This document shows positions 16,808 through 42,737 of a DNA stretch of 64,000 nt, in pieces. Made by a program: the position numbers and the translations under genes. The DNA comes from Gammaproteobacteria bacterium (GTDB taxonomy: Bacteria > Pseudomonadota > Gammaproteobacteria > Ga0077536). Within the stretch, counting starts at the first letter, position 1, and every line of letters begins with the position of its first letter. Below the pieces are notes generated by a model. The model did not search any database, was not told where the DNA came from, and saw only the letters and a program-made list of their open reading frames with translations. The stretch spans positions 28,397 through 92,396 of the forward strand of contig OZ244981.1 in the NCBI GenBank assembly GCA_965223085.1, in the 5' to 3' direction.

Positions 16808-16841
16808 TAGTATCGCAATATTTTCCGTGGGGGAGTCGGAT

Positions 16842-19800: not shown

Positions 19801-20534
19801 CCGATAACCGCGGTTGGATGAATTTGTTCAAACACTGGTCCTGGTCCGGCATGTTCCGCGCGACATGGGCGGTGAGCGCTGCTATGCACGGTGCACGTTT
19901 TCAGCGTTTTTGCCGCCAGCGGCTCGACTTAAGTTACCGCGATCCGCAAGTGCGAGGACCGCTCCGCGTTGCCAACAGTAGAGATCTGAAGAAGTTACTC
20001 GAAAACGTGCACGCCGAGCTGGAAGACGACGGCAGCAATCGCGTGAAGACGAACTTCGTCGAGAACGCCTGCATCGAAGCACGCATCAAGAAACTCCACG
20101 GTCGCGACGATGTCGCACCGGCTGAATTCTTGGTGGCGCAAATCGTGCTCTCGATCGATGTGCCGGAGATCCCGGGTAAATCTTTAGATTTCCCTATCGC
20201 CTGTGCGCTCGCGTTCAGGGCCGCCGACGCGGGTACCCAAATAGTCTATTTTCGAGTTCGCGATCACCTGCGTCGCATGGGCCTGGGCGCGCGCGGGCTT
20301 AAAGCGATTATCGACAAATACCCCGACTGGACCGTCGCCGACTTAGATCTTATCCGCGCCATCGAAAGCGCTAGCACCGCTGCTGAAACTCCTCCACGCG
20401 ATGGAGTCGACCCCATTTCGATGTTCCACGCCTTGTTCGATTCCTTGCACCGCCAGCGACGCCTGGGGGCCCAGCAAACCGACACCTGGCCGGATCCGAC
20501 CTTGCCGCCGGTGCGCCAGGTGTCGCGCCGCTAG
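16842..20534 (+). CDS. Patatin/cPLA2-like phospholipase with inserted TM bundle and C-terminal GNAT-like domain
   Basis: GLALSGGGIRSA oxyanion motif, STVSGG nucleophile, LSDGGHFDNLG catalytic Asp; many hydrophobic helices between the Ser and Asp; RVRDHLRRMGLG near the C-terminus. Confidence 0.8.
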   Translation: MSKDANNPVTFRTVFSAEQQSIDNNQNNGYRLGLALSGGGIRSATFNLGVLKGLARRGILRQVDYLSTVSGGGYIGSWLAAWARRAPGGIAQVQQQIQDVPEPKAIAHLRHYSNYLTPRVGFLSADFWTGLATHFRNTALNLCVLVPMLMALLCLPYIFTWIGVQTRATFWAPWTLAAGGALLIATMVYAGARARTPSADDSHKNAESEVRERISSDALGALLGVLFLFSCWLSAQALTSAWLADIRPQHPGMWALCGGIIAFATTMALAFYLLNRRRLSQKSYDGCYVWSLALASFGGGATSGCLLALIAGGLGANSAIWSLLLATPLVVIAVGSGIGIYIGIMGGLLSEAAREWWARFAAWVAIATTAWCLLHSFAYVVPQLYKSVDKNNLYLSVSSVAWTLLSVIGVGIGRSRFTGSPTSNAVLEIFARATPYIFVLGLFAVAGIANSVVLSKVTDCQFSGLLLESAAICAGGTAPALSFSLAVGGLFVLVVVFLATRIDINLFSFHSFYSNRLMRCYLGASRDPAARRPNGFSQFDLHDDLDLAPPKDDTHPLKPLHIVNAALNVSKSENLAWQERKALSFALTPLYCGYATDPTLAHGEDDGARSYCPTAAFMKEPRYRGGKLGLATAMAISGAAASPNMGHHTSPALAFLLTVFNVRLGRWMRNPRVPINTARNVSNWRRSIQASEIFRIRYLLMELFGATTESDDYVYLSDGGHFDNLGIYELVRRGCRYIIASDAGADPNYQFEDLGNAIRKCRIDFGVSIDLDPSVIRPRDETGLSTATCVIGKIDYGSYNPSGTAQRLAPGWLLYLKASVLGAEDPDVMQYRNRCPDFPHEPTSDQWFSESQFESYKTLGETIAVRAFESVDKLEVIDDSVFHQLHSIWAPASASTHKNFTRHVHSLQQLTEELKASSQLAFLDEQIIPEWPYLLSGEAAVESDPARMWLPEGDHLRRLGFYYCSRFIQLMEAVYLDLDLDSEWRHPDNRGWMNLFKHWSWSGMFRATWAVSAAMHGARFQRFCRQRLDLSYRDPQVRGPLRVANSRDLKKLLENVHAELEDDGSNRVKTNFVENACIEARIKKLHGRDDVAPAEFLVAQIVLSIDVPEIPGKSLDFPIACALAFRAADAGTQIVYFRVRDHLRRMGLGARGLKAIIDKYPDWTVADLDLIRAIESASTAAETPPRDGVDPISMFHALFDSLHRQRRLGAQQTDTWPDPTLPPVRQVSRR

Positions 20535-21598: not shown

Positions 21599-22351
21599 TT
21601 ATTTTAATTTCTGCAAATACTGTTTCGTGAAGACCTTGGCCGGTAGCTTGCGGTTTTTCATATTACTGTAATCCATGATCGAAACTTCACCGCCGCGCGC
21701 GGCGTCGGTGAGCGTCAAGCGTGTCGGGCGCACTTTGCCGCCGAGGGATTTGAATTCCCCATAGTGTGCCGTCTTCAGTAAGCGCCCCGACACGGTATAG
21801 AACTCAGCCCTGTGGGGCCAATGATTATCCGTGCGCACCCAATACATCACTTTGTGGTAGGTGACCCCGCGGCGCGCGGCGGTAAGTTCTAACACGTAGC
21901 AGCTATGTTCACCACAGGCTTCCTCACGCACGTGTTTCGGGGTGTAGTCACCGGTAAAGTTTGCGCGCGCCAGATCGCCGTTCGCCACTTGCCCGGTGAG
22001 CTTTTGCGACAAGGGCAAGCGTACCGGTTGGGATACCGCCGGCATGAACACCCACAGATCCTTGTCCCGCATCAATAACATCTGGCCACGTTCGTCCGCC
22101 GGTTCGCGCGTCAGCACCAGGGTGCGCGCGTTGCCCTTCGACAAAACCTGATAAACGCGTGCGACCTCGCGCCGTCCACGCCGCTCGCTGGTGACCCGGA
22201 TCTTGACTTGAAAGCCCGCTGTGGGAAAACGGATCTCGTCGGCTTGGGCAACGATCTGTTGTGCCAGCGGCTCCGCACCGTAAGCGTAGCTCGTGAGCAC
22301 GAGCGGGGCAAGCAAGAGGCCGATTATGACCGCAAGTTTAGATGCGTTCAT
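21599..22351 (-). CDS. Outer membrane lipoprotein-sorting protein (LolA-like fold)
   Basis: Signal peptide; EPADERGQMLLM, LWVFMP, QKLTGQVANGDL, RAEFYTVSGRLLK, VFTKQYL are typical of the family. Confidence 0.85.
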   Translation of the reverse strand: MNASKLAVIIGLLLAPLVLTSYAYGAEPLAQQIVAQADEIRFPTAGFQVKIRVTSERRGRREVARVYQVLSKGNARTLVLTREPADERGQMLLMRDKDLWVFMPAVSQPVRLPLSQKLTGQVANGDLARANFTGDYTPKHVREEACGEHSCYVLELTAARRGVTYHKVMYWVRTDNHWPHRAEFYTVSGRLLKTAHYGEFKSLGGKVRPTRLTLTDAARGGEVSIMDYSNMKNRKLPAKVFTKQYLQKLK

Positions 22352-22410
22352 GCAGATTTTCTCGTATATTTAAGTCTTTTAGAGTCAGTTTCTCGAAATT
22401 TCGTCAGATA

Positions 22411-23121
22411 ATGACCGCACACGTCGTCAAGGTGGACCAAGTCTACAAAGAATATTTTCTCGGCAACCAAAAAGTTGTCGCCTTGACGGATATTTCCCTC
22501 ATGGTGCGTGAAGGTGAGTTCTTGGCCATCTCTGGGCCTTCGGGGAGCGGCAAATCAACCTTACTCAATCTCATTGGTTGCATCGACAAACCCAGCGAAG
22601 GCCGCATCTACATCGATGCGACAGATGTTACCGAGCTACCCCCGGATGCGCTTGCCGATCTTCGTTCACGAGACATCGGTTTCATTTTTCAAACCTTTAA
22701 CTTATTGCCGGTGCTCTCGGCGGCCGAGAACGTCGAATACCCCTTGCTCAATCGACGCCTCAAACGCAGCCTACGCAAGGAGTTGGTCGACTATTATTTG
22801 AACCTCGTTGGCCTAGAGAAGTTCAAGACCCATCGCCCCAATGAGATGAGCGGCGGCCAACGCCAACGCGTCGCGATCGCACGTGCTCTGGCGATAGGGC
22901 CCCGGATCGTGCTCGCCGACGAGCCGACCGCCAACCTCGACCACAAAACCGGTCTCAGCATTTTGCAATTAATGTCACAAATAAACCACAATGAAAACAC
23001 GACATTCGTCTTCTCGACCCACGATCCGCAAGTAATGGCGATGGCTAATCGGATCGTACGTTTGACGGACGGGGTGCTCACCGATCCCGGCTATAACTTT
23101 GAAGGGGCTAAACGTGCATAG
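22411..23121 (+). CDS. LolD/MacB-type ABC transporter ATP-binding protein
   Basis: GPSGSGKS, MSGGQRQRVAIARAL, LADEPTANLD, FSTHD; start at MTAHVV. Confidence 0.92.
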   Translation: MTAHVVKVDQVYKEYFLGNQKVVALTDISLMVREGEFLAISGPSGSGKSTLLNLIGCIDKPSEGRIYIDATDVTELPPDALADLRSRDIGFIFQTFNLLPVLSAAENVEYPLLNRRLKRSLRKELVDYYLNLVGLEKFKTHRPNEMSGGQRQRVAIARALAIGPRIVLADEPTANLDHKTGLSILQLMSQINHNENTTFVFSTHDPQVMAMANRIVRLTDGVLTDPGYNFEGAKRA

Positions 23122-25734: not shown

Positions 25735-26538
25735 TTAGGGATCCCGAACGTGATCTGCCAAGGTTGGCGTTTGGCTGCGTAATTCCTCGCGTATGTGTTC
25801 GAGCAAGGCACGCACGGAAGGCCGCAAGCTAGGGACGAAACCCTCACGTTCGAGTTGAAACGGAATGCGTTCGCCGTGGTGTTCAAATGCTGGACCAATT
25901 TGTTCGAACTGCATACCATAGGATCGCAGGCGCCGCACGAGTTTTGGTTCCATGATCGCGTAGACGCGGTCCATACCGCGAATCAGTCCCAATGCTGCAG
26001 CGGCCAAATACAAACCCATGCCGATATTGGGAAAACCGCGGCGTTCGAGCCGATCGGGTACCGGTGACCAGCCGATTTCGGTGTGGGGCTGGGTCTTTTC
26101 CCCGCGACGGTGGCGATATTGGGAGACCACGGCGATGCGCGAAATCTCACCGCAGACCTTGCGCATGTCGGCGTCGCCAAATAAATCGACCTCGGCGCCG
26201 GCGGCCTGTAAGGCGAGCTCAAACGGGAACGGGGAGCTCGGATCGTGGCGATCACTAGTCACTAAACGCACGCAGCCAATGTATTTCTTCGTCGGTCGAT
26301 GCTCCAGCAAACAATGGGCCGCGCGGCCATCAAAGGCATCCGACTCGCGACAATTTTGGAACTCGGCGCGGCTCTCCCAGGCGAGTTCCTCGGCATAGAC
26401 GCTGTAACGGATGCGGTAAGCTTCGTCGATAAGCTCCGGCGTCGCAGCCCAAACGACGCGAAAATATTTTGCGAATGACTCGACAACGCGGTCGGTTTTC
26501 GCTTCTCGAAGACTGTGCATGGCTACCGCGGATCTCAT
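25735..26538 (-). CDS. PEP-CTERM/exosortase system-associated acyltransferase (FeeM-like N-acyl amino acid synthase)
   Basis: EAYRIRYSVYAEEL, ESDAFD, GCVRLV, EISRIAV..YRHRRGE, AIMEPKLVRRL, IGPAFEHHGERIPF (TIGR03694-like). Confidence 0.88.
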   Translation of the reverse strand: MRSAVAMHSLREAKTDRVVESFAKYFRVVWAATPELIDEAYRIRYSVYAEELAWESRAEFQNCRESDAFDGRAAHCLLEHRPTKKYIGCVRLVTSDRHDPSSPFPFELALQAAGAEVDLFGDADMRKVCGEISRIAVVSQYRHRRGEKTQPHTEIGWSPVPDRLERRGFPNIGMGLYLAAAALGLIRGMDRVYAIMEPKLVRRLRSYGMQFEQIGPAFEHHGERIPFQLEREGFVPSLRPSVRALLEHIREELRSQTPTLADHVRDP

Positions 26539-26762: not shown

Positions 26763-27851
26763 TTGACTATTTATTCCCAACGGCTAGCTGCCGATAGCAT
26801 AACAGCGTGTAATAAGATCCTTGACGCCATGAACGTCCCGCCCAAGCCCCTCGTTTCCTTGATCGTTCCGACCCGGGATCGGCACATGCTCTTAGAGGAA
26901 GCGCTCGCGAGCGTCGCCGCGCAAGAATTTGATGACTTGGAAGTCATCGTCATCGACGACGGCTCGACGAAACCTGTTTCACAGGCAGACCTAACGGCCT
27001 TGTCAGGACACGATGTCATCCTGCACCGCAACCCGGTTAGCTGTGGGATCGCGGCCGTTCGCGACCAAGGGGTTAAGCACGCGCGCGGCGAGTATATCGT
27101 GCAACTGGATGATGACGATCAACTAGCGCCCGGGACTCTGGTCACGTTAATCGCGGAATTGCGCAAGAATACTCAGGTTGACGTGCTTCACTTTGGCGTC
27201 GCAGCGCTTGACGATCACAGTGGCGCGTTTGCACATAAACAGCACGTCGGCGTGCAGCGAATTCTAAATTCTGCCGCAGTCAGCGCCCTCGAAGGTTCGG
27301 TTTATTATTTCGACAGCTCGATTTTTGCTGTGCTGCTCGACGGTGTACCACTGGCGTTCCAACGTCTCATGACCCGACGGAGCACTTGGCTCGACGTGCG
27401 GGAGATGATCAGCGCCGTCTACGCCGCCCCTGCGCAACGTCGCAACCACTTCAGGCCCAGTGCTCGTCGCGATTTGCTCAATGAAGCCGAATGGACGATC
27501 TACGCTGCAACTAAATATCGTCTTGCTTATCTCGATATGCCACTGTACATGCAGCGCTGCACGGGACAACGCTATTTTTCCCGCGACGACCTCCAAGGCG
27601 AAATGCTGACATCATCGATCGCGATGAAATCGACCCTGCATCACGGCGCCCAAGCAAACATTTTGCATTTCGGTAACTTAAAGGATAGCGCACGCCGTGC
27701 CTATGCCAATAGTTGCGCGCAATTTGCCTACTGGCATATGCGAGAATCACGACCCAAGTTATCCCTGGCCTATGCGAAACATTCGCTGCTGCTGCGCCCG
27801 AGCTGGTCGGCGTTTAAGACCTTTCTCAAAGCGCTACTGCGTTCGCGTTAA
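26763..27851 (+). CDS. Glycosyltransferase family 2
   Basis: VSLIVPTRDR, IVIDDGS, QLDDDD (DxD). Confidence 0.85.
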   Translation: MTIYSQRLAADSITACNKILDAMNVPPKPLVSLIVPTRDRHMLLEEALASVAAQEFDDLEVIVIDDGSTKPVSQADLTALSGHDVILHRNPVSCGIAAVRDQGVKHARGEYIVQLDDDDQLAPGTLVTLIAELRKNTQVDVLHFGVAALDDHSGAFAHKQHVGVQRILNSAAVSALEGSVYYFDSSIFAVLLDGVPLAFQRLMTRRSTWLDVREMISAVYAAPAQRRNHFRPSARRDLLNEAEWTIYAATKYRLAYLDMPLYMQRCTGQRYFSRDDLQGEMLTSSIAMKSTLHHGAQANILHFGNLKDSARRAYANSCAQFAYWHMRESRPKLSLAYAKHSLLLRPSWSAFKTFLKALLRSR

Positions 27852-30041
27852 CTGCAATAGCGAGAACTGGGCGCCACGGTGGGCCACTTCGAACACCGGC
27901 GAGGCGGGCAGATGGCGATTATCCACCAAGATATGGGTGATCGCGTGTGCCGCAGCCAAGCCTGCGAACTCATCCGCGTGCCGGTCGAGACGCGCATATT
28001 GATAGCGTTGCTGGACCCGGCGGCGATAGAGATATGCGGCGCCCAGTGCCGGATTACACACCACGCCATCGGCGTACTTCAAACCCCACCAATAGTTCCT
28101 TTTCGCAAAAACCGAAAACGTATCATCGCGCAAGGCCAAGAACACGAAAGCTTGCGGGGGCAGGCGCGCTGCGAGCGCGCGCTCGTAGTCACGCAGCGCG
28201 CGTTGCTCTACCGTTAGGTTACTCAAGGTCCCCCGCTCGGTACGGTAGAGGCCCGCCGAGATAGCCGTCGGTAAAATTAAAAAGATCGCCGCCACACTCA
28301 ACAATGCCGCGGGGCGCAGTCGCGTTTCCACTGCGCGCAGGCGCCGTAGCGCGAGGTGATCGCGGCTGATCAATAATCCCAGTACCAGGGTAAGCACCGC
28401 TAGGGCGAGTAACTGCAGCAAATGATCGGGGCGCCCTTCGGGAAGCCGCGCGAACCCAGCGACGAATTCAGATAACAACGGTAACGCCGCGGTCCCGCCC
28501 CACCCCCCGGGGCTCAGCGCAAGCATGACGACAATAGCAATTATCATCGCGGTCACGATCGCGGCACGCCGAAAGTGACCGGCACCCACATCGCGAGGTG
28601 TCAGCCAAGGCAAGGTCAACAGAACCATGAACGCTTCCAAGTGGTGCAATCCTGCGTAGTCGAAAGCAAGCGTCAAAGGAAATAAGGCGACCAACTCGTT
28701 CTTGCGCACGAGCACAAGGGCTATCAAATAGCAGGACACCAAGAGCCGCTGCAAGCGCGGCGACAAGAGCTCAGGCGTTTCCAGCCCTAGAGTCGCCACG
28801 ATCGCCGCGATCGCAAGCAGAAATCCGACGCGTAACCACAGCGGTGCCGCGCGCCCTTTGATTTGCAGGTTATGCACAAAACATATCGCCACCAACACCC
28901 ACACGCCGAGCAAAATGCAGATTGCTGCTACCCCCATCATGATTTTACTGTCGGTATCGTCGATGCGCGCGGAGTCGAAGCTGCAGCGCGCCGCGGCGAA
29001 CACGAGGCAGAAAGCCAATATCGTGATGAAGGTGTCACAACGCATGAATTGCAAGTCGAAGATAATTTTTGAGGTGACAAATAGCGGTGCAACAACCCCT
29101 ACTATAAAAAATGTTAGGTTGGTCGTGAACAGCAAAGCGACTTCGTCGCGTCGCTGAGTTAAATATAAGATGGCCATAGCGCCGGTCATTACCGACATCA
29201 CGAACGAGCCGATCGCGGTGCTGTCACTAGCCTGGATAAAATAATGGTAGGGATAAAAATTCCACAGAAAATTCAAGTAATCCTCGCCACTTGTGCCGTG
29301 CACGGTGGCGCTAAGAATATGTAATACCCAAGCGATTACCGGTAATCCGACCGCGACATAAACGAGGCCGGGTGCAAACAAGTCGCGCGGGCTAATTCTT
29401 CTACCGGACGCCAAACTTTGTCCCAACTGTGCAATATACATTGCCGCACCCGCCCATAGGCCCATAAAGACGTTGCAATTTAGCGCCAGTCCTGCCCACA
29501 GCGCCGCACCCTTGTAGCGACCTTCTAGGCCGGCGGAGTAAGATATCAGAACACAGGCGATGGCGATCGAGGTGTGATTTGCATAGGTGATCAATAAATC
29601 TGAGCGCGAGATCGGTGTAAATGTTTGCAGCGCACCAGAAAAAGAAAGGATAGTCGCACCGACTAATGCCGAAATCTTATCGTTCGACACGACATAAATA
29701 ATGCGGAAAACCGCATAGAGCGTTAAACAGCGCGCAAAAAAATGCAGCGCGAAAAATGCAGTCGGCAAATCGCGTACGAATGTCGCACGTGCCAATAGCC
29801 ACCAAATGACGGTGCAATAATTTTTTAGCGCTTCTATAAACGGATTGTCGGCGAACAGTGTCGCGTCGCGATACTTTTCTATGATTGCGATGTGCGTCGC
29901 ATTGTTGTTGATGCCAAAGTCCCAGCCTTGATAAAGAATAGAGAGCGCACTCGCAGCACATATCCATACGCACGTGAGCACGCCCCAGCCGACCTCCCGC
30001 GTCACAAACTGCGGCACACTCGCTCTTAGTGCGTGATTCAC
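27834..30041 (-). CDS. Multi-pass membrane protein, possible GT-C-fold transferase
   Basis: Many TM helices, a first periplasmic loop (FGINNNATHI...DATLFADNPF) and a soluble C-terminal domain; GTGA overlap with the upstream nucleotidyltransferase. Confidence 0.5.
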   Translation of the reverse strand: MNHALRASVPQFVTREVGWGVLTCVWICAASALSILYQGWDFGINNNATHIAIIEKYRDATLFADNPFIEALKNYCTVIWWLLARATFVRDLPTAFFALHFFARCLTLYAVFRIIYVVSNDKISALVGATILSFSGALQTFTPISRSDLLITYANHTSIAIACVLISYSAGLEGRYKGAALWAGLALNCNVFMGLWAGAAMYIAQLGQSLASGRRISPRDLFAPGLVYVAVGLPVIAWVLHILSATVHGTSGEDYLNFLWNFYPYHYFIQASDSTAIGSFVMSVMTGAMAILYLTQRRDEVALLFTTNLTFFIVGVVAPLFVTSKIIFDLQFMRCDTFITILAFCLVFAAARCSFDSARIDDTDSKIMMGVAAICILLGVWVLVAICFVHNLQIKGRAAPLWLRVGFLLAIAAIVATLGLETPELLSPRLQRLLVSCYLIALVLVRKNELVALFPLTLAFDYAGLHHLEAFMVLLTLPWLTPRDVGAGHFRRAAIVTAMIIAIVVMLALSPGGWGGTAALPLLSEFVAGFARLPEGRPDHLLQLLALAVLTLVLGLLISRDHLALRRLRAVETRLRPAALLSVAAIFLILPTAISAGLYRTERGTLSNLTVEQRALRDYERALAARLPPQAFVFLALRDDTFSVFAKRNYWWGLKYADGVVCNPALGAAYLYRRRVQQRYQYARLDRHADEFAGLAAAHAITHILVDNRHLPASPVFEVAHRGAQFSLLQLTRTQ

Positions 30042-31132
30042 GGGTTAGGTTGAAAGCTCTTGCGAAGCAAATGAGGCAGCAACAAATGCACCGGCATGCG
30101 CAAATAGTGACCGCGCACATAAAGTGCGGTGCGGGCGAGATTCGCGCGCAAAGAATCGCAACTTGGATGCCGTGGCGTGAACGCGCAACTGAACAAACGA
30201 TCCATGTACCTACGCCATGAATCCGTCCGTGCGACGGACTCCAAGCGTACGCAAAACGCATGCGGCAGTTCAGTTCCTAAGATCTTACGCGTGAAGTGCG
30301 CCGCATAGTAAAGCGATTGTTGCAAGTCTAGTTCGGCCGCGCGGTCCAGCAACGTATCCAGCGACGGGTCGCACTCGCAAACATCGCGAAACAGGTAGTC
30401 GAGATCGACCAAATCTCGCAGCCCGTGATCGAACTCGCCCTCGTGAAACAAATGCGCAGCGCTATGCAACAACATGTCTTGTGGCGACAATGTACGAAAA
30501 TTCGCAAGGTCACCGTCGAGCGGCACCGCCGCGGCGAAAAGCTGCGTCGGGTCTAATTGTTCGCGCGACGTTAGCGGCAAGATCGTGTGATGCACATCGA
30601 TGTCTGTCGCCCGTTTGATGTGCATCATCGGTGGCAGCTGATGCATCCAGGTGCGATAGTATTTTTCATCATAGGCCGAGACACCTTGCATTAACCAACC
30701 GGCGTTGCGCAGCGCTTGCTCGGCGCGCGCCAAAGCAGTTTGCGGAATGAGCACATCGACATCGCTGAATACGCGCCCACGGGCGAGTGCGATGCCGCGT
30801 GCGACATAAGCTGCACCTTTGAGGATCACGGGCTGCAGATCCAAAGGCGCCAACGCAGCGTCGATGAAACGCAGTTCTTGCAACACATCCAAACGATGTT
30901 TATCCGCTAAAATGCGCGCCGCCTCGAGATGGCGCCGCGGCGCCGCAGGGATATTTGCGATCAAGCCGCGCGCGGCAAATCGGTGCTGCAACTCCGCTAG
31001 CAACAGCACGCGACGCGCTTGGTGAACGATTTGATCCCAATCGGCGAGCGAGCAATCAACTACCCGTTCGGGGTAGCGCCACGCGCGTTCGATGATCGGT
31101 CTGGAAGCAGGCACCGCAGTGGTTCTACTCAC
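30038..31132 (-). CDS. Nucleotidyltransferase family protein (NTP_transf_5)
   Basis: VILKGAAY, GRVFSDVDVLI, IDVHH, LLHSAAHLF, GLRDLVD. Confidence 0.88.
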   Translation of the reverse strand: MSRTTAVPASRPIIERAWRYPERVVDCSLADWDQIVHQARRVLLLAELQHRFAARGLIANIPAAPRRHLEAARILADKHRLDVLQELRFIDAALAPLDLQPVILKGAAYVARGIALARGRVFSDVDVLIPQTALARAEQALRNAGWLMQGVSAYDEKYYRTWMHQLPPMMHIKRATDIDVHHTILPLTSREQLDPTQLFAAAVPLDGDLANFRTLSPQDMLLHSAAHLFHEGEFDHGLRDLVDLDYLFRDVCECDPSLDTLLDRAAELDLQQSLYYAAHFTRKILGTELPHAFCVRLESVARTDSWRRYMDRLFSCAFTPRHPSCDSLRANLARTALYVRGHYLRMPVHLLLPHLLRKSFQPNP

Positions 31133-32055
31133 GCTACGCCGTTAGCGCACTGGTGGGTGACAAAATCCGTCACCGCGGCGACACCGCGCGCCAAATGTCC
31201 GTATTCAAACGACACGCTTTCGCAATCATCGACTAAGGCAGCAACGCGCTGAAAAGCGGCCTCACCCAGCACGCCAAAATTAAACCCTTGCTCGGCGAGG
31301 TCGAGGCAGGCGCGCGCTTTCGATCGTTGCATGAACTTGGGTTCGGCATCCGGTGTGTAACGTGGCAACAATATCGCGACGGCTCGTGCCGGGCGATCTG
31401 CGGCAGCCACGCTTGCGGGCGGTGGTTTCATTAACGCAACCGTCCCCTTCGCCGTGTCGCTTGCTTCCGCGCTGAAGACCGCCTCAGGTGCAAACGCCTT
31501 GATTACGCCGATGGAAGCATTTTTTAAATTGATCGGTCTCACCAAAGGCCAAATCAAGCCGCTCGCGACATCGACCAAAGTCAGTTCATCGGATAACAAA
31601 CGCCAACCACGCGCGACGAGCCCCGCGCATAACGTGCTTTTCCCCGCCCCGGGCGGACCCGGCATGATCAGCGCTTTGTCGTCGCGCGCGATCACTGCGG
31701 CATGGATCACCAAGTACTGATGAGCGTACATCGCGACACACCAGTTCAAACCCCATTCGAACAGTGGGTAGGCCTGATCTGCCGGCAACGGTTTAAACGG
31801 CGTCGAACCGTTGAAGTAGAACAAAACTTGCGGTCGATACCAACGCCGCAGCGACTTCGGCGGTGCCACGGCCACGGGAAAATCGGCGAAACCTGAATCG
31901 TCTAGGCGATGTTCGCCATAGAGACGCACTATTTCGCGGGTCAGGGCTGCACACGGCGAGTGCGCGCGAACCACAAACGGTCCGGTGCGAAAACTCAAGC
32001 CGGCGCCCGTCAAGCGTGCCCCTACCTCACGGCGCGGCACTTCGGCTAGCTTCAT
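31129..32055 (-). CDS. HprK-related kinase A
   Basis: PLFEWGLNWC, IHAAVI, GPPGAGKSTL, GWRLLSDE, RPINLKNASI (TIGR04352-like). Confidence 0.88.
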   Translation of the reverse strand: MKLAEVPRREVGARLTGAGLSFRTGPFVVRAHSPCAALTREIVRLYGEHRLDDSGFADFPVAVAPPKSLRRWYRPQVLFYFNGSTPFKPLPADQAYPLFEWGLNWCVAMYAHQYLVIHAAVIARDDKALIMPGPPGAGKSTLCAGLVARGWRLLSDELTLVDVASGLIWPLVRPINLKNASIGVIKAFAPEAVFSAEASDTAKGTVALMKPPPASVAAADRPARAVAILLPRYTPDAEPKFMQRSKARACLDLAEQGFNFGVLGEAAFQRVAALVDDCESVSFEYGHLARGVAAVTDFVTHQCANGVA

Positions 32056-32378
32056 TCCGTTATTTCGATCAGCTGCAGTTGAGATAGTTTATCGATAATC
32101 GTCGCGATCATCGTTATCGCATTATCGGCAACTTCGGGCGTGGAATGAAGCGTGAGACGATCTTTAAGCTCGGCGACGGTAATGGTTTCACCCGCTACCA
32201 GCGCCTCGAGAACCAAGGTGTACTCTGCATCGAGATAATGCAGATCACCTGCTTGCCGATCATAGAGAACTTGTTCGCCCTGCCAGCGTTTGGCCACCAG
32301 TTCGGCGCGCTCGCGGCGCTTAACGCTGACGCCATCAAGCGCGCGCTGCGATGCGTCAGCAGTGCCGCCTTTAGACAA
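32052..32378 (-). CDS. PqqD-family peptide chaperone / RiPP recognition element of the HPr-rel-A system
   Basis: WQGEQVLYDRQAGDLHYLD...LSQLQLIE has the three-strand, three-helix RRE pattern; coupled to the kinase (TIGR04353-like). Confidence 0.75.
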   Translation of the reverse strand: MSKGGTADASQRALDGVSVKRRERAELVAKRWQGEQVLYDRQAGDLHYLDAEYTLVLEALVAGETITVAELKDRLTLHSTPEVADNAITMIATIIDKLSQLQLIEITE

Positions 32379-32895
32379 CCCCGTTCAGAATGAGTAGGTC
32401 GGGCAGGCAAGGATCGTTGGGAATTACCCACTGTCGTAACGTAATCGCGTTGATCCCGTAGGCTGATTCGCCGTACGTTGCGATATTCAGCTCGGCGGCG
32501 ACGATATTGGCAAGAATGCTCTGATCGCCCAAATCTAGGGCCGCCGCCAGAGTTAGATCAGGGTCCTGCAGCGGGATACTGTGGCCCGTGTACTGATCGC
32601 TGAACTTTATCGTCTGGTAATCGTTCGGCACGGCGCCGGAACTGACCCACTCGCTTGGTGAATCGCCCACACATTTCACCATATTGGCACCCGACATGTT
32701 GCCCGACATGCGCCCGGAGACCGAACACATGTTCGCCATCGCCGGGCGATTCGCGAGCGTCAGTAACACCGGCGCGCTCGCTGTCGCGAAGCGGCGGCGG
32801 CTCAAGTTGACGTCCTTGACGTCCGCTTGTGGTGATGTGCTTTCAGCATCCGTGCCGGCTGATCGGTGCTGTACCTCTGTATCTTGTTTGTCCAT
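32371..32895 (-). CDS. Hypothetical protein with twin-arginine-like signal and CSVSGRMSGNMS motif; candidate modification substrate
   Basis: GAGGAG RBS before ATG at 32895; SRRRF...APVLLTLANRPAMA; stop overlaps the PqqD-like gene. Confidence 0.7.
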   Translation of the reverse strand: MDKQDTEVQHRSAGTDAESTSPQADVKDVNLSRRRFATASAPVLLTLANRPAMANMCSVSGRMSGNMSGANMVKCVGDSPSEWVSSGAVPNDYQTIKFSDQYTGHSIPLQDPDLTLAAALDLGDQSILANIVAAELNIATYGESAYGINAITLRQWVIPNDPCLPDLLILNGVV

Positions 32896-32999
32896 CGTTG
32901 TTCGCTCCTCGCCGTAATTGGTCCGCATCTATGCGATCACGGCGATGCTTTAAAACGTAATTCTAAAATCTGTATAACTAAAGCCTTTGCTGCAAACCG

Positions 33000-33015
33000 T
33001 GCAAAATTCGTTCCG
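33000..33015 (-). promoter_or_regulatory. Sigma-54 promoter for the 32895-27834 operon
   Basis: Minus strand reads CGGAACGAATTTTGCA (GG-N10-GC with TTGCA at -12). Confidence 0.6.
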
Positions 33016-33035
33016 CACAATCCTTATTGCTGCAC

Positions 33036-33048
33036 TTTCAAGGTATTA
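33036..33048. promoter_or_regulatory. IHF-like site
   Basis: TTTCAAGGTATTA, one mismatch to WATCAANNNNTTR, lying between enhancer and promoter. Confidence 0.4.
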
Positions 33049-33090
33049 GGCTATTTCTCTAGCGACCTACACTATTATGGAGGCAACGCT

Positions 33091-33107
33091 TGTAAAATTC
33101 TTTGACA
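33091..33107. promoter_or_regulatory. TGT-N11-ACA enhancer (putative PrsR box)
   Basis: TGTAAAATTCTTTGACA; near-copy CGTAAAATTGCTTGACA at 33319-33335. Confidence 0.6.
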
Positions 33108-33373: not shown

Positions 33374-34726
33374 CTAGGCGCCGGACGGGAAGTTATATTT
33401 TTTCAGCAAATGATAAACGGTGGGCCGGCTGACACCGAGGATTTCCGCCGCTTTGCCGATCTGGCCGTCTGCCACCGCCAACGCTTGCTGCACCGCAGTC
33501 GATTCCGCTTCGTAGCGCACCTCACGAAGCGACTTAAAACCGATACTGGCCGGCGCGTCGAGCTCGAGGTCGTGCGCTTCGATGAGGCGGCCTTCGGCCA
33601 TGATGCTGGCTCGTTTAATACGATTTTCCAACTCACGCACATTGCCGGGCCAATCGTGGTGCTCGATCGCGGCGAGGGCGGGATCACTGAAATCTCGCGC
33701 TTGGGTTGTGCCCTCGGCGCGAAATTTGCTCAACAGCGCCCGCGCGATCAAAATAGCGTCACCGGTTCTTTCGCGTAGCGGCGGAATGGTTAACGTCAAC
33801 TCGCTGACCCGATAGTAGAGGTCTTCGCGAAAATCACCCGCGGCGATCAACGCTTGCAGGTCTTTGTGGGTCGCGCATATGACGCGAAGGTCGACCGGGA
33901 TCTCGGCGCGACCGCCGAGACGCTCGACCACGCGTTCCTGTAAGAATCGCAATAGCTTCGCTTGCAAAGCAGTGGGCAAATCACCCATTTCGTCGAGCAG
34001 CAAAGTGCCCCCATCAGCGAATTCCAACTTGCCCTTGGTTTGCTTCGAGGCCCCCGTGAAAGCCCCTTTTTCGTAACCAAACAACTCGCTTTCTAGCAAC
34101 GTCTCGGGAATCGCCGCGCAATTAATCGCGACGAACCGTGCATCGCGGCGATCGCTAAGCTCGTGCAGTGCCCGCGCGAGAATTTCTTTACCGGTGCCGC
34201 TCTCTCCTTGCAGCAGCACAGTGGTGTCGGTCGGTGCGATGCGCTCCAGGCGACGGCAAACTTCGACCATGGCGGAACTCGCGCCGATAATTCCGTCTAA
34301 GGGTTCCCGCTGTTTGGCAGTGAGCTTGAGATTTTCAGCCTCTAATTCGTGCAAATGGAACGCCCGCTCGACGATCAAGCGTAGTACATCGGCATCAATG
34401 GGCTTTTCGTAGAAGTCATAAGCGCCTTGGGCTACCGCGCGCACCGCCACTTCCCGATCGTCGTTGCCAGTCACGACAATTACTTTTGTCGTTGGCGCCG
34501 CGCCTAGGATTTCTTCGAGCGCGAGCAAACCCTCAGACGCATTGGCAGGATCGGGTGGCAAGCCGAGGTCCAGGGTTACAACTTGGGGTGCGTCCGCGGC
34601 CAGTTTTTTCAAGGCTTCAGCACGGTCCCCTGCGATTTTGACGTTATAACCCTCGAACGCCCATTTAAGTTGTTTTTGTAACCCTGGGTCGTCATCCACG
34701 ACCAAAATCGTTTGCTTTGCGGCCAT
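33374..34726 (-). CDS. prsR: PEP-CTERM-box sigma-54 response regulator PrsR
   Basis: DDDPGLQKQLKW, VTLDLGLPPDP..ASEG, GESGTGKE, GAFTGA, C-terminal HTH GVSRPTVY. Confidence 0.93.
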   Translation of the reverse strand: MAAKQTILVVDDDPGLQKQLKWAFEGYNVKIAGDRAEALKKLAADAPQVVTLDLGLPPDPANASEGLLALEEILGAAPTTKVIVVTGNDDREVAVRAVAQGAYDFYEKPIDADVLRLIVERAFHLHELEAENLKLTAKQREPLDGIIGASSAMVEVCRRLERIAPTDTTVLLQGESGTGKEILARALHELSDRRDARFVAINCAAIPETLLESELFGYEKGAFTGASKQTKGKLEFADGGTLLLDEMGDLPTALQAKLLRFLQERVVERLGGRAEIPVDLRVICATHKDLQALIAAGDFREDLYYRVSELTLTIPPLRERTGDAILIARALLSKFRAEGTTQARDFSDPALAAIEHHDWPGNVRELENRIKRASIMAEGRLIEAHDLELDAPASIGFKSLREVRYEAESTAVQQALAVADGQIGKAAEILGVSRPTVYHLLKKYNFPSGA

Positions 34727-36828
34727 TAATAAACCTCGGTAACGTGCTTCGGCTCGGCGACAACCGCGAGCGGTAGTTCGATCGTGAACACCGTTCCCAC
34801 GCCGACTTCACTAGTCACTCGGAGGTGACCACCCATAGCGTTTATCGTGTGCAGACTTTCGTACACGCCAATGCCCATGCCCGCTTTCCCTTTCGTGGTT
34901 TCGAACGGCTTAAAGAGCCGATCACGAATAAACGATCGTTCCATCCCACACCCACTGTCGGCAATTTCCAGCAAGGCTTTATCGCTCTCGATGGCAGAGC
35001 GTATCTCGATGGTACCATCATTAGCTGTTGCATCTTGGGCATTTTGCACCAGGTGCTCGATGACTGCAGCGAAACGGTCCGCCAGTCCGCGCACATAAAC
35101 ACCGGCGGTTGCGGATTGAAAATGCGGCGCCGGCGTGCGCTCACCGACGCGCGCGATCACCTCAGCGACCACCGCATCGAGTTCAAACGGAGCCGCGTCG
35201 CGCTCGACCGTCTGAGGTTGGCGCAAAGTCCCCAGCATGCGTGTCATTTTCCTGACTGCGTCGTTGATGGTGCTAAATGCATCGTCGACAAATTCTGGTT
35301 TGCCACGGTGGCGTTCCGCATTTTTTGTAACCAAAGATAACTGGGCAACAACATTTTTCAGATCGTGCACGAGAAACGCAGACAAGCGATTAAAGGCGTC
35401 AAATTGATGTGCTTCGGCTAACTCTTCGGTCGCATGCAAAAGTGCGAGATAACCTGCAGCTTGGCGACCCAGGGTGCGCAACAGCGCCCGATCTTCTGCG
35501 GTGAACGGCGCCCCGGAACGAGGTTCTTCGAGTAAGATAAACGCCAATAACTCTGCGTCAAACTGAATCGGAATAACGATCCAGGCGCGTTTGTGCTGAA
35601 TGATTTCTGATGGAATATTTCCGTCGTGTTGCATGCCGCCAAGTCTCGACGCCGGCGCCAAGTCCAGCACCGTCTCATCTGATCGCAAGCGCCGCACAAG
35701 TGCCGAAGTCTCCGCAATGCTAACGGGCAAACTAGTGCTTTCCGAGCCATAGCGCGACACAATCTCGTAGGCTCCGGTTGCCTGTTGCTGCCACATCGTA
35801 CCGCCCGTGCTGTCCATGATATTAGCGACCGCGCGCAAGATTGTGTTTTGCAGATCGCCCAGGTTCGGTCCTGCGTGAGCCAATTCGTCGGTAAAAGACA
35901 ACCACACCGAACCATAGTCGTATTTATTGCGATAAAAATGTTTGGCAAGAAATGCGCTTATTCTCGAGCGCAAACCACGTGACGATCCAAGGGCGACAAG
36001 CGTTGTGACGGTCCCGAACAAAAAAGCTACGCGCAGCGCCCCGCCCCAGGTTCCACCATAGGCCTTCAAGTAATAACCGGCGCCGGCCATCAGCAGCAGA
36101 TAAATGCCGGCGACCAACACGCTTGCGCTGTGAAAAACGACGGTTCTCGAGACAAATAGTCTCAGTTGCCATGCAACATTACGCGTGGCAGTGATCGCGA
36201 TCAGCGGCACCACGATCGCGTGCGCGATACCGCGTGCGGCGATCATGTCCGGGTTGATTTGATTGAAAAGTACCGCATCAGAATAAAGTAGAAATTCGAA
36301 TGCAAACGCTCCTGCAAGCGCGATGCAAAAATGCTTGATCGACCAGCGTGCCTCAGCCTCGGTGTTGCGATAAAGTTGTTCAGTAAGGACTAGTCCACAC
36401 AGGGAGAGGGACAGATAACAGAGCAAATTGAGTTTTGTAACCAAGGCGGGATCGTCAACCCACCGGTACCACCACGCGAAGCCGAGGCGAAAAAACACCA
36501 ACGCCGCGCCGCTCACCAGGGCCGCAGCGAGCACCAAGCGCACGCGCGAGAAATAGCCCCGACTACCAAACTGATTCAAAAGCGTCGTGAGAACGAAAAT
36601 CCACACCAGTGCGTGCGCAATTTCCAAGTAGTGCGCGACTTCTGCCGCATACCAAGCGCTGTGCCCATGTTGCACCGCTAAGGAAAACAACCATGCCGAG
36701 CTCACCGCGCTGGCAACGATCATGCGGCGGCCGATAGGGGTCCCGCGATGACTGAAGATCAATAAAACTAATAGGATCGCGAACGCGAGCGCACCGATGG
36801 AGGACGAGACAATGGTAAATTCCGGCAA
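34726..36828 (-). CDS. prsK: PEP-CTERM system histidine kinase PrsK
   Basis: N-terminal TMs, KHFYRNKYDY, GAF, QFDAFNRLSAFLVHDLKN, HLVQNAQDAT, GMGIGVYE. Confidence 0.93.
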   Translation of the reverse strand: MPEFTIVSSSIGALAFAILLVLLIFSHRGTPIGRRMIVASAVSSAWLFSLAVQHGHSAWYAAEVAHYLEIAHALVWIFVLTTLLNQFGSRGYFSRVRLVLAAALVSGAALVFFRLGFAWWYRWVDDPALVTKLNLLCYLSLSLCGLVLTEQLYRNTEAEARWSIKHFCIALAGAFAFEFLLYSDAVLFNQINPDMIAARGIAHAIVVPLIAITATRNVAWQLRLFVSRTVVFHSASVLVAGIYLLLMAGAGYYLKAYGGTWGGALRVAFLFGTVTTLVALGSSRGLRSRISAFLAKHFYRNKYDYGSVWLSFTDELAHAGPNLGDLQNTILRAVANIMDSTGGTMWQQQATGAYEIVSRYGSESTSLPVSIAETSALVRRLRSDETVLDLAPASRLGGMQHDGNIPSEIIQHKRAWIVIPIQFDAELLAFILLEEPRSGAPFTAEDRALLRTLGRQAAGYLALLHATEELAEAHQFDAFNRLSAFLVHDLKNVVAQLSLVTKNAERHRGKPEFVDDAFSTINDAVRKMTRMLGTLRQPQTVERDAAPFELDAVVAEVIARVGERTPAPHFQSATAGVYVRGLADRFAAVIEHLVQNAQDATANDGTIEIRSAIESDKALLEIADSGCGMERSFIRDRLFKPFETTKGKAGMGIGVYESLHTINAMGGHLRVTSEVGVGTVFTIELPLAVVAEPKHVTEVY

Positions 36829-37089: not shown

Positions 37090-38490
37090 CTAGCGCGCGC
37101 CCTTGCCCCATAAGATCACCTGGATAGTCTGCAAAATAATGTTCACGTCGAGGAACACGCTATAGTTTTTCAGATAATACAGGTCGTATTGAAGTTTCTC
37201 CCGCGCGTCTTTGATCGACGCACCGTACGGGTAAGATACCTGCGCCCAACCCGTGATCCCGGGTTTTACATGATGCCGCAGATCGTAGTAGGGGATGATA
37301 TTGGACAATTCCGCCACGAACTCGGGCCGTTCTGGGCGTGGCCCCACGAAACTCATGTCGCCGTTGAGCACGTTGAATAGCTGCGGTAACTCATCGATCC
37401 GAGTCTTGCGAACGAAATGGCCGACTCGGGTAATACGGCTGTCGTCGGTGGTCGCCCACACTGCGCGACCGTCACCCTCGGCATCTTGATACATGCTGCG
37501 AAACTTGTACAAAGTGAATGGTTTGCCGCGATGCCCAACCCGCGTCTGGCGGTAAAGAACCGGGCGACCACTCTCAAGAAGGATCAGCAGCGCAATTACC
37601 GCCGCCACCGGCAGGCTTACTACTAACAAGATCACTGCCAGAATGATGTCTAGCACGCGTTTTTCAGTGCGCTTGAGCACCGCTTGCGTAAAACCGTCGG
37701 AAAAAATCACCGTGCTGGGGCGCATCGCATCGAGGCGAATTTTACCGAGCTGGCGCTCGAAGAACTCCGCATCTTCTAGAATGCGAATGCCGCGCATTTT
37801 GCAGTTCATAACGTCGTCGACCGGCAAACCCTTGCGGCGATCCGAAATCGCGATCACGAGTTCGTCGGCGGCATAGCGCTGCGCTATCTCGTAGAGTGAT
37901 CCTTTGGTACGGATCGTTTTCTCCGCCGAGACCACCGGTGTATCTAGGCCGATATCGACGAATCCGATGAGCGTGATCCCAGAACGGTCAGAGGCGCGAC
38001 GCAAATTCTCGATTTGCTTGGCACGCTCACCGGTACCAAGCACGAGCACACGACGCGTGAAACGAGCGTCGGTGTGTCCGGCGCAAAGCATACGGCAGGT
38101 TGCGATCCCAATGAACGAGCACACGAGCGCAATCGCGAACACGGGCCACCGGACCATCAAGGGCGGGACACTAAAGTAGATGACAGTCATCACGAAAAAC
38201 CCTGACAGAAAGCTCAGGGTCAGACGCAGGATAATCACCGCGGGCGTATCGCGTTGCTCACGCTGATAAAAACCCATCGCGATCATGCCGGCGATAATGG
38301 CACTGGCAAACGCCGCCGCCTTGTGCCACAGGGGCAATGAATCTCCAAGCGGTTCAAGTACAAACGCCGGACTGTCCCAAGCAACCGCAATCACCGCACC
38401 GAGATAGATCGATACTAGCAGTATCAAAATCTCGGCGGCGCCTAACAATAATAATGTTTTTGGTATGTAGTGCCTGAAAATTCTAAGCAT
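37090..38490 (-). CDS. PEP-CTERM system-associated sugar transferase (undecaprenyl-phosphate glycosylphosphotransferase)
   Basis: [10 protein letters not shown] start, [38 protein letters not shown] (TIGR03013-like). Confidence 0.92.
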
Positions 38491-38790: not shown

Positions 38791-40926
38791 CTAACCCACG
38801 CCGTATTGCTGTAGCGCCTCGAGCAGCGTCTGCTTTTTGATCGGCTTAGTCAAGTGTGCAGAACATCCGGCTGCCAAACTTTTCGCCATTTCCTCTTTCA
38901 ATGCATGTGCAGTCAAGGCGATGATCGGTGTGGTTTTGCCCGCCGTGGCCGCTTCCAATGCCCGAATCGTTCGAGTCGCCTCGTGGCCATCCATCACCGG
39001 CATCTGCACATCCATCAAAATCAAATCGTAGGCGCCCGAACGAAACTTCGCGACCGCGGCTGCGCCATCTTGTGCTTCATCGACCTCAATGGGCGCACGC
39101 TTGAGGTAGGTTTTGATCAACAGGCGATTATCCGGATTATCTTCGACCAATAATATTCGCTTGCGCTGCGGAGACGTCGTCGGCGATGCGCCGCCCTCCG
39201 CGGCGCTCGTTGCCACCGTTGGCGGTTGACCGCGCTCGAGGGGAAACTCGAATACAAAGCGGCTGCCGTGGCCCGGCTCGCTAGTGACGCTGATATCGCC
39301 ACCCATCAATTCGACCAGCCGTTTAGAAATACTCAAACCGAGACCCGTGCCACCGTATTTTCGCGTCGTCGTCGAATCAACCTGGGTGAAACTATCAAAA
39401 ATAGTTGCCAGCTTTTGTGCCGGTATACCGATCCCGGTATCGCACACGGCGATGCGAATACTGTGTTCGCCGGCGGCACGGGTGACTAAATCGACCCGTA
39501 AGCCAATTTCTCCGCGCTCAGTGAATTTCATCGCATTGCCCAGCAAATTCAATACGATTTGACGCAAGCGGTTGGGATCACCGCGTACCCACGTGGGCAC
39601 ATCGGCTGCGATCTCAGCACCTAACGTGATGCCTTTCTCGGCACATCGTAGCGCATAGATCTGCACCGCTTGGTTGATAAGTTCGGGCAACGCATAGTCG
39701 ATCGACTCGAGCTCCAGTTGGCCGGCTTCAATTTTCGACAAGTCGAGAATGTCGTTGACCAAACTCGACAAAGCTTCACCGGCATTTTTAAACACATCGA
39801 CGTATTTCGCCTGGTCACGCGCCAAGTCCGTTTCCGCTAACAATTCCGCCATGCCGATAATCGCATTCAAAGGTGTGCGGATCTCGTGACTCATGCTCGC
39901 GAGAAAATCAGATTTCACCCGTGACGCTTCTAGCGCTTGGTCGCGGGCTTCCGCGAGTTCTCGCGTTTGCCTTCGCACTTGTTCTTCGATGACGAGATTA
40001 CGTGCGGCCAATTCGCGTGTTTGCAAGTCCTTAGCGCGGGCGAGCGCGATCAGCAGCAACGTCACACCGCTGCCTAAGATAGCCGCGGCACTTAGCAAAG
40101 CTTTGTCGAGATCACGCCACAACAAGCGTTTTTCCGCCACGAGTCGCATCGAGTAACGATCAAAACTGGCGTGCGATTCTCCAGATAGGGTTTTCAATAC
40201 CAACCCGGCGGTCGCGCGCGCGAAGGATTTTTGCATTATCAGGTTGCGGCCGCCCAATCCTTCGGATTCGGAGAAGAGTTGCACGCTCAAGCGCTCATCG
40301 ACCGCCAGCGGTCCCAGTACCGCGGCGGGATCGAGGGCAAAAATCACCACGCCGCGCGCACGTTCACTAGCGTCAGACGCAGCCACACGATGCGCGAGAT
40401 AATAGACCGCCTCGCCCGCCGCTAGCGTAGCGCGCGGCAACATCACCGGTAACGCCGCCGTGGTGGCCAGCACCGCGGGCACATCCGTCGCCGCTCCACC
40501 CGCTTCATCCAACTGCATTTCCGCTGGGAACGGGTCGCGTTGCGGCGCTGCCGTATCCACCAGCAGCAGGCGCTCAGGATTGTCAGGCGTGGCTTGATAC
40601 CACGCGACGTTGACTAAAAATTCGTGACGTGCACGGAGATCGTGAGCCATCGCGGCGAACAAGGAGGCGCTATCGTGCCGCGACGTTGCCAACGTGTTCG
40701 CCAAGAAATGAATCGCGTCATCGGTGATCCTGAATTTGCTGTTGGCTGACTCGTCGAGTGACAGCGATTCCAAGGCGAATTCGCGGTTTGCACTCTGCAA
40801 GGCGCTGCCCCACGCGAGCATCAATAGCGCGGCGAGGAACGCGACGCCGAGCGCTGCCGCGACAACGTAGAACAGGCCTATCGACGATTGGCGCATGAGA
40901 ACTTCATCACTGTCCCCTGCTTCCAT
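38791..40926 (-). CDS. Hybrid sensor histidine kinase (periplasmic sensor-HisKA-HATPase-REC)
   Basis: FLASMSHEIRTPLN, NLLGNAMKFT, DTGIGI, GGTGLGL, receiver ILMDVQMP. Confidence 0.92.
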   Translation of the reverse strand: MEAGDSDEVLMRQSSIGLFYVVAAALGVAFLAALLMLAWGSALQSANREFALESLSLDESANSKFRITDDAIHFLANTLATSRHDSASLFAAMAHDLRARHEFLVNVAWYQATPDNPERLLLVDTAAPQRDPFPAEMQLDEAGGAATDVPAVLATTAALPVMLPRATLAAGEAVYYLAHRVAASDASERARGVVIFALDPAAVLGPLAVDERLSVQLFSESEGLGGRNLIMQKSFARATAGLVLKTLSGESHASFDRYSMRLVAEKRLLWRDLDKALLSAAAILGSGVTLLLIALARAKDLQTRELAARNLVIEEQVRRQTRELAEARDQALEASRVKSDFLASMSHEIRTPLNAIIGMAELLAETDLARDQAKYVDVFKNAGEALSSLVNDILDLSKIEAGQLELESIDYALPELINQAVQIYALRCAEKGITLGAEIAADVPTWVRGDPNRLRQIVLNLLGNAMKFTERGEIGLRVDLVTRAAGEHSIRIAVCDTGIGIPAQKLATIFDSFTQVDSTTTRKYGGTGLGLSISKRLVELMGGDISVTSEPGHGSRFVFEFPLERGQPPTVATSAAEGGASPTTSPQRKRILLVEDNPDNRLLIKTYLKRAPIEVDEAQDGAAAVAKFRSGAYDLILMDVQMPVMDGHEATRTIRALEAATAGKTTPIIALTAHALKEEMAKSLAAGCSAHLTKPIKKQTLLEALQQYGVG

Positions 40927-40943
40927 GCGCGTTGAGACCGCTT

Positions 40944-41249: not shown

Positions 41250-41298
41250 GCACTTCTCCTATCAAAACCGTACTTGCCGGGCCGGCCGCGTGAAAAGT

Positions 41299-42657: not shown

Positions 42658-42737
42658 GGGCGCGACGCGCCTCGCGCCGCAGCACGGTGGCTAGACAGGC
42701 GTTGTTTTGTGACGACCTGTGCGTGCCGCATCGTGAG

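Follow-up and report, generated by a model that had tools for sequence, protein, structure and literature searches.

What is acted upon by the bacterial gene set that joins a PqqD-family peptide chaperone, an HprK-related kinase and an NTP_transf_5 nucleotidyltransferase (NTase)? The question is raised by a 64,000-nucleotide stretch of gammaproteobacterial DNA (contig OZ244981.1 of assembly GCA_965223085.1; hereafter the window), on whose minus strand these three genes follow that of a 174-amino-acid (aa) protein of an unnamed family and precede that of a polytopic membrane protein (Table 1). The answer we favor, and regard as reasonably probable from sequence comparison and analogy, is that the first four genes form a sigma-54-driven protein-modification cassette within an XrtA/PEP-CTERM exopolysaccharide (EPS) locus and that the 174-aa protein is its substrate. 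Because full-length relatives of this protein consistently adjoin the chaperone, kinase and NTase genes, it is likely to be the long-missing substrate of the set.

The five open reading frames (ORFs) run in an overlapping series, as a sequence-only reading of the window had described; the overlaps are 8, 4, 4 and 4 nucleotides (nt), and the junctions read, in gene order, TTGTCTAA, ATGA, GTGA and GTGA. The acidic start noted in that reading for the first product is borne out by an n-region with seven D/E against three K/R residues, followed by SRRRFATASAPVLLTLANRPAMA and then by NMCSVSGRMSGNMSG. We take the first protein to be 174 aa long because only the ATG at 32895 has a ribosome-binding site (GAGGAG); the ATG at 32928 abuts an upstream TAG and has none. 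The conserved core, as judged from related loci, is four genes, namely those for the 174-aa protein, PqqD_rel_X, HprK_rel_A and the NTP_transf_5 NTase.

Conservation of the first gene beside the kinase

A word-index homologue search with the first protein returned only the query, a false negative that was overturned by tblastn, ORF maps and a profile search. By tblastn and ORF maps, the kinase loci of related genomes carry a protein of 170-300 aa directly upstream of the PqqD and kinase genes. HprK_rel_A was found above its cut-off in 31 of 401 genomes of the class, a sample whose members are related and whose counts are not independent. Full-length matches to the precursor profile occurred in 23 genomes, every one of them among the 31; in 22 the precursor gene lies directly upstream of the PqqD and kinase genes, a few hundred bases from the kinase, and in the remaining genome (G381) precursor and kinase stand at the ends of different contigs. 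The association of the first gene's homologues with the kinase, chaperone and NTase genes, put forward from the sequence alone, thus holds in this sample. A weak profile match in one further genome (G249) is spurious: it falls within a large gene for a membrane protein, beside NADH-dehydrogenase-like genes.

The other eight kinase genomes do not carry a full-length member of the window's family (type A). Six have a different protein (type B) in the same position and with the same kind of twin-arginine leader, and one of these six (G238) has an additional weak leader-only profile match. Another genome (G396) has only a weak leader-only match adjoining the kinase, the sequence itself being unread, and in the last the locus is truncated by a contig end.

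Of 33 kinase loci, 32 have the NTase gene, the one exception ending at a contig edge, and the gene lies either downstream of the kinase or divergent from the precursor gene. The divergent arrangement is that of the type B loci (L020, L022, L023, L024, L043, L058), where the NTase gene does not follow the kinase. When ORFs of 25 wider loci and the window were clustered, the most frequent neighbor beyond NTase, kinase and precursor was found in 7 of the 26, and the recurrent neighbors were ordinary EPS-locus genes (epimerase, trypsin-like protease, acyl-CoA ligase, asparagine synthase). A gene for a trypsin-like serine protease stands near the cassette in six of the 26 loci (L062, L064, L069, L073, L074, L078) and directly adjoins the NTase gene in two of them (L064, L078).

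The precursor protein and its enzymes

An alignment of the window's protein with 19 relatives from kinase loci (n=20) has C57, C75 and N137 invariant and R33, R34, S60, S64, G77, P80, W83, A134 and L136 at least 90% conserved. Searched against 1.84 billion representatives, the family profile matched 7995 proteins at E≤1e-3, a number that fell to 4573 at E≤1e-10 and to 246 at E≤1e-30. Among the best 149 matches, the window's protein excluded, 133 were short (164-305 aa) and nearly all had an identical layout; these 133 and the window's protein make up a second alignment of 134 sequences. Of 10 representatives looked up, 5 had a source name, in every case "hypothetical" or "uncharacterized".

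Just beyond the predicted cleavage site lies a short serine-rich tag, the candidate modification site. The sequence-only reading had singled out its C-x-x-SG-x-x-SG-N-x-S residues, and their conservation is confirmed: in the 134 sequences C57 stands at 100%, S60 at 99%, G61 at 87%, S64 at 99%, G65 at 89%, N66 at 92% and S68 at 95%, figures that are upper bounds because the top scorers came from a profile containing the motif. The family motif can be written C-[ST]-x-S-G-x-x-S-G-N-x-S, and of the 133 short representatives 108 carry the strict pattern, C-[TSA]-x-S-[GA]-x-x-S-[GA]-N-x-S. The domain that follows opens with C75 (100%), G77 (99%), P80 (89%) and W83 (96%). AlphaFold2, run on the 20-sequence alignment, gave a mean predicted local distance difference test score (pLDDT) of 70.5, with residues 1-74 at low confidence and ten-residue block means of 78-94 over residues 81-160, which are modeled as a helical domain. 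Compared with the PDB, the precursor model found nothing with Foldseek at E≤0.001, and its best alignment with VIA-align (wide) had an unconvincing Z of 3.7.

The same C-terminal domain is also found alone or as two to six tandem repeats in large proteins, one of 808 aa having six repeats; these proteins have neither leader nor tag and, where sampled, do not adjoin the kinase. Since the C-terminal-only matches sit away from the kinase in this way, it is the leader and tag, as a module, that track the kinase, and not the helical domain. The large secreted proteins P0005, P0021, P0027 and P0058 carry the domain in the form G-C-[ST]-P-G-[YF]-W ... A-A-L-L-N-A ... C-P-L.

The window's leader, SRRRFAT...PAMA, has the features expected of a twin-arginine translocation (Tat) signal: an h-region follows the S/T-R-R-x-F/L-x-K motif, and the residues at -3 and -1 are small, as the signal peptidase I rule calls for. 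Across the 134 sequences the motif residues R33 (95%), R34 (99%), F/L36 (89%) and K38 (65%) are followed in the h-region by P42 (81%), T/S46 (94%), S49 (80%), R/K50 (92%) and P51 (85%), and at the signal-peptidase site by V/A at position 52 (-3; 96%) and A/G at position 54 (-1; 99%). TatC is encoded in the genome (229.8 bits). The h-region core appears to be specific to the family: a P-V-I-x-T-L sequence is unusual for a Tat signal, and the pattern P-[VA]-[IV]-x-[TS]-[LV]-x-[SAN] occurs in 80 of 133 type A and 11 of 13 type B or short precursors and in 1 of 45 crude Tat-like candidates from the window's own genome, that one being the 174-aa protein itself.

Type A, type B and short precursors thus share an RR and P-x-x-x-T-L leader before unrelated mature sequences, with a PqqD protein always adjoining. 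One leader before three unrelated kinds of mature sequence, next to a PqqD gene, follows the logic of leader-guided enzymes that make peptides synthesized by the ribosome and modified after translation (RiPPs). By eye, all three kinds place a Cys and a nearby Ser/Thr at most about a dozen residues from the point of predicted cleavage, and most type B proteins (those of the six loci named above) have G-x-C-x-x-S-[ILF] near their end, a few residues short of the C-terminus. A complex prediction for PqqD with precursor residues 20-80 scored 0.02 against a mark of 0.32 and is evidence neither way.

A sister system was seen at L055:5775-8178 and L054:5609-8141, where one to three tandem peptides of 66-87 aa bear an RR / A-P-x-I-L-T-L leader. 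These two genomes have no full HprK_rel_A match; their PqqD is of the lasso type, their kinase reaches 72-85 bits to TIGR04352, below cut-off, and the flanks examined showed no match to the NTase.

For HprK_rel_A (TIGR04352) the kinase reaches 362.6 bits where the cut-off is 200, and in 18 sequences conservation is 95% or more at its P-loop residues G136, G138, K139, S140 and T141 and at D156/E157. The NTase scores 159.7 bits against a cut-off of 31.2 for NTP_transf_5 (PF14907), and 19 sequences conserve the G...DxD residues G106, D124 and D126 at 95% or more. D124 and D126 correspond in kind to D134 and D136 of PsmN, a pair required for activity according to PMC6993621. The window's PqqD aligns with 15 proteins at the equivalent position in other loci. 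Sequence searches of the PDB with the kinase and the NTase returned nothing significant.

Setting and control

By its gene content, the region around the cassette is an XrtA/PEP-CTERM exopolysaccharide locus (Table 1). PrsK is encoded in 30 of the 31 kinase-bearing genomes, the exception being a 75% complete genome, and exceeds its cut-off in 98 of 400 genomes scored, 68 of them kinase-free (roughly one in five of such genomes). We give this association without a P value because related genomes are not independent. Kinase and PrsK genes lie between 3 kb and over 1 Mb apart.

Table 1. Positions of the cassette, its parts and the surrounding features in the window
Feature	Position	Strand	Basis
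PrsT	70-2427		
Exosortase-system acyltransferase	25735-26538		
GT2 glycosyltransferase, convergent with the 735-aa membrane gene	26763-27851	plus	PF00535 at 1.4e-22
Polytopic membrane protein, 735 aa	27834-30041	minus	no family match
NTP_transf_5 nucleotidyltransferase, 364 aa	30038-31132	minus	PF14907
HprK-related kinase A, 308 aa	31129-32055	minus	HprK_rel_A TIGR04352
PqqD-family peptide chaperone (RiPP recognition element, RRE), 108 aa	32052-32378	minus	PqqD_rel_X TIGR04353
Precursor/substrate candidate, 174 aa, unnamed family	32371-32895 (alternative start 32928)	minus	no Pfam/NCBIfam family
Predicted C-terminal helical domain, residues 75-174; starts at invariant C75, contains AAxLN motif	32374-32673	minus	AlphaFold2
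Conserved Ser tag CSVSGRMSGNMS, residues 57-68, candidate modification site	32692-32727	minus	conservation among 134 sequences
Twin-arginine leader, residues 32-54: SRRRF, h-region APVLLTLAN, RPAMA	32734-32802	minus	134-sequence alignment
Sigma-54-type promoter-like site CGGAAC-N5-TTGCA	33000-33015	minus	2 mismatches, GG + GC intact
PrsR (sigma-54 activator) and PrsK, directly upstream of the cassette	33374-36828	minus	TIGR02915 681 bits, TIGR02916 657 bits
Priming glycosyltransferase	37090-38490		TIGR03013

The consensus of sigma-54 promoters is TGGCAC-N5-TTGCW, from which the site before the cassette (CGGAACGAATTTTGCA, about 105-120 nt upstream of the ATG) departs at two positions. The sequence-only reading had placed the genes behind a sigma-54 promoter. 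Taken by itself the site does not rise above chance, because the window holds 329 sigma-54-like sites at three or fewer mismatches where about 290 are expected; its conservation upstream of the orthologous genes does exceed chance. We scanned the 250 nt before each precursor gene, requiring GG and GC to be intact and taking the background from the same loci. Ten of the 19 type A loci and four of the six type B loci had sites with at most two mismatches (background 0.044 per 250 nt), and with at most three mismatches the numbers rose to 14 of 19 and 6 of 6 (background 0.19 per 250 nt); at the stricter setting this is 14 of 25 other loci, with about one expected. RpoN is encoded in the genome, and PrsR is a candidate activator of the cassette; its placement directly upstream recurs in L024.

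Two further regions of the window are recorded here. At 11652-20534 three ORFs follow one another on the plus strand (417, 1300 and 1235 aa); they have no NCBIfam match at 1e-10 and adjoin genes for LolCE-like permeases, with a LolD-like ATPase gene downstream at 22342-23121. The genes at 38791-44570, next to glmS, encode a hybrid histidine kinase and a second sigma-54 response regulator, the best match of the regulator being GlrR (576 bits, below the cut-off of 763).

Proposed steps, alternatives and parallels

The nearest precedent for the chemistry comes from lasso peptides. According to PMC8498205 and PMC6993621, an HPr-kinase homologue in lasso systems phosphorylates a Ser of the linear precursor, and in pseudomycoidin the NTP transferase PsmN is needed for the addition of one or two hexoses to the Ser phosphate. 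The paeninodin and pseudomycoidin systems likewise combine an HPr-kinase homologue with a PqqD-type RRE and an uncharacterized NTP transferase. The present cassette differs from them in that its putative substrate is a 170-300-aa protein with a predicted export signal and in that its candidate serines lie at the mature N-terminus, the modified Ser of lasso peptides being C-terminal; the window's precursor, 174 aa long and ending in NGVV, is unlike a short lasso precursor that ends in the modified Ser. The statement that no lasso peptidase or cyclase is present locally agrees with what we find: the lasso B2 peptidase domain (Transglut_core3, PF13471) has no match in the 99.9%-complete genome, and no Asn-synthetase-like cyclase was named among the large ORFs scanned in positions 1-49417 of the window, no genome-wide search for it having been made.

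In the scheme we propose, the substrate would consist of a twin-arginine leader, a Cys/Ser tag (C-S-V-S-G-x-M-S-G-N-x-S) after the predicted cleavage site and a helical carrier domain. The PqqD-family chaperone would bind the leader, with its P-V-I-x-T-L h-region, in the cytoplasm and present the tag to the HprK-related kinase, which would phosphorylate one or more of S60, S64 and S68. The NTP_transf_5 enzyme might then add a further group to the phosphate, either a hexose, for which PsmN is needed in pseudomycoidin, or a nucleotide; we propose this order, phosphorylation and then addition by the NTase, because the lasso HPr-kinase homologue and PsmN act in it. The folded, modified protein would leave through Tat, which, unlike Sec, transports folded and bulky cargo, and the leader would be cleaved. 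A lanthionine-type cross-link, formed by elimination of phospho-Ser and addition of Cys57, was considered too and is regarded as a remote possibility, no lyase or cyclase being present.

A more ambitious version of this scheme, which we put forward as doubtful, envisages a class of protein-sized, RiPP-like substrates in which one twin-arginine sequence serves both as the leader read by the chaperone and as the Tat signal. The chaperone would retain the precursor while kinase and NTase turn the serines of the tag into an activated phosphodiester, Ser-P-NMP (nucleoside monophosphate) or Ser-P-sugar, and once outside, the added group would attach the protein to the XrtA/PEP-CTERM-associated exopolysaccharide or prime it. 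If that were so, the system would be a bacterial counterpart of protein phosphoglycosylation.

Several points weigh against the substrate assignment and the chemistry attached to it. The gene set, its conservation and co-occurrence, the motifs and the promoter site are seen in the sequences; the substrate role and the export route are proposed, the chemistry is drawn by analogy with pseudomycoidin, and adjacency alone is no proof that enzyme and substrate are paired. In 7 of 30 assessable kinase loci the neighbor is another protein or a weak leader match, not type A, and all these counts come from related genomes. The conservation figures, besides being upper bounds, are inflated by a division into types A and B made by eye with the motif as guide; several alignment members have degenerate forms of the Ser motif, which is therefore not universal, and the protein of the window is itself divergent and shortened, with PSEW replacing PGYW. 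Two library models also fall short: PqqD_rel_X (TIGR04353) covers all 74 of its 74 profile positions in the chaperone at 34.6 bits, just below the cut-off of 35, and TIGR01409, a very short model, recognizes the leader in 1 of 20 members, at E 0.073.

That the 174-aa protein is merely a co-regulated neighbor, for instance a periplasmic EPS factor, with the trio modifying a small peptide, a sugar or a lipid carrier, seems to us unlikely. Such an account would sit comfortably with the occurrence of the cassette in EPS loci, the near-constant company of PrsK, the epimerase, asparagine synthase and acyl-CoA ligase genes among the recurrent neighbors and an NTase family that has no defined chemistry (PMC6993621); yet an RRE of the PqqD family implies that the ligand is a peptide or a protein, the stretch from the promoter to the first gene holds no other small ORF, the next most widespread neighbor cluster reaches only 7 of 26 loci, and the leader, being conserved before unrelated mature domains, fits recognition by the enzymes of the cassette. 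The leader invites a different objection, that it is a RiPP leader only resembling a Tat signal, the product being freed by proteolysis and either leaving by another route or staying in the cytoplasm. The fit to the S/T-R-R-x-F/L-x-K motif, the basic residue before the c-region, adherence to the -3/-1 rule in 96% and 99% of the 134 sequences, and the presence of TatC argue for a genuine export signal, and across the 25 wider loci and the window the cassette has no recurring protease or transporter dedicated to it; we consider this objection distinctly improbable, even though the h-region is more constrained than in the genome's ordinary Tat signals, TIGR01409 fails on the leader and the tandem peptides of the sister system share it.

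Less probable still on its own evidence is the full five-gene model, in which the membrane protein would be a GT-C-type enzyme that glycosylates the modified protein or joins it to an envelope polymer; this we regard as very unlikely. The GTGA overlap with the NTase gene suggests co-translation, and the membrane gene is probably co-transcribed with the cassette in the window; a low-confidence model shows a polytopic protein whose C-terminal part is soluble, and its conserved neighbor is a glycosyltransferase. Against this, tblastn with the 735-aa protein found no match in 32 other kinase loci, 26 of which had only about 1.5 kb of flank, and the protein is in none of the recurrent neighbor clusters of the 25 wider loci. 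A search of 5.8 billion proteins yields just two clusters of homologues, at 40% identity, and in both records (L052 and L053) the membrane gene follows a homologue of the window's GT2 glycosyltransferase (37% identity); within 8 kb of the membrane gene, L053 shows no match to the kinase, the NTase or the precursor, and the L052 record is only 5.5 kb long. No family, GT-C families included, matched at E≤0.01, with chance-level rows only at E≤10, and the AlphaFold2 model, made from four sequences, was unusable (pLDDT 38.7). Because the homologues adjoin GT2 and the kinase cassette was not found beside the one with 8-kb flanks, we group the 735-aa protein with GT2 and not with the kinase system: it is, as far as comparison of loci can tell, a local addition outside the conserved cassette, and the membrane enzyme's link to the modification system, part of the sequence-only reading, is left unsupported. 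For this protein an Atlas feature search pointed to clusters bearing DUF6798, which we treat as a lead only, since the Pfam hidden Markov models failed to show that domain even at E≤10. GT2 and the membrane gene are neighbors in each of the three genomes with the membrane protein (26763-30041 in the window; L052, L053).

Two other systems offer partial parallels. Bufferins, according to PMC11626156, are RiPP precursors with Sec signals that fold as small proteins, and they share with the cassette small folded precursors, a general export signal and cytoplasmic modification with an RRE-like partner. The cassette differs in having a Tat-type and not a Sec-type signal, a kinase and NTase in place of a multinuclear non-heme iron-dependent oxidative enzyme (MNIO), and serines in place of cysteines as candidate sites. 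The Tat proofreading chaperones TorD and DmsD provide the other parallel, as cytoplasmic proteins that hold a twin-arginine leader until maturation is complete; the analogy is functional only, PqqD having a winged helix fold and the maturation here being a proposed covalent side-chain modification, not cofactor insertion.

The cassette falls within the HPr-rel-A system of NCBIfam, of which the window's kinase is a clear member and in which its PqqD holds the expected position. Pfam and NCBIfam have no model for the neighboring protein, and none of the 20 family members has a meaningful match to either at E≤1. To that system the present comparison would add a candidate substrate, its leader, a universal NTase partner, control by sigma-54 and nesting in PrsK genomes. 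The open literature searched, which excluded supplements and about 1.7 million PMC articles, holds no description of the HprK_rel_A/PqqD_rel_X system, and the papers that came nearest in topic, on lasso peptides and radical-SAM systems, do not describe it in title or abstract.

The enzyme families are thus known, and what appears to be newly recognized is a family of candidate substrates bearing a Tat leader, together with its regulation. The HprK_rel_A and PqqD_rel_X models are curated, yet the libraries searched name no substrate for them; a widespread candidate can now be proposed, with its leader and the residues to mutate defined and its regulator predicted. If the assignment is confirmed, leader-guided RiPP enzymology would extend to folded proteins exported by Tat, and a new extracytoplasmic helical domain, found also in large repeat proteins, would gain a name. 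Phospho-modification of serine would then be tied to the floc- and EPS-forming PEP-CTERM systems of environmental bacteria.

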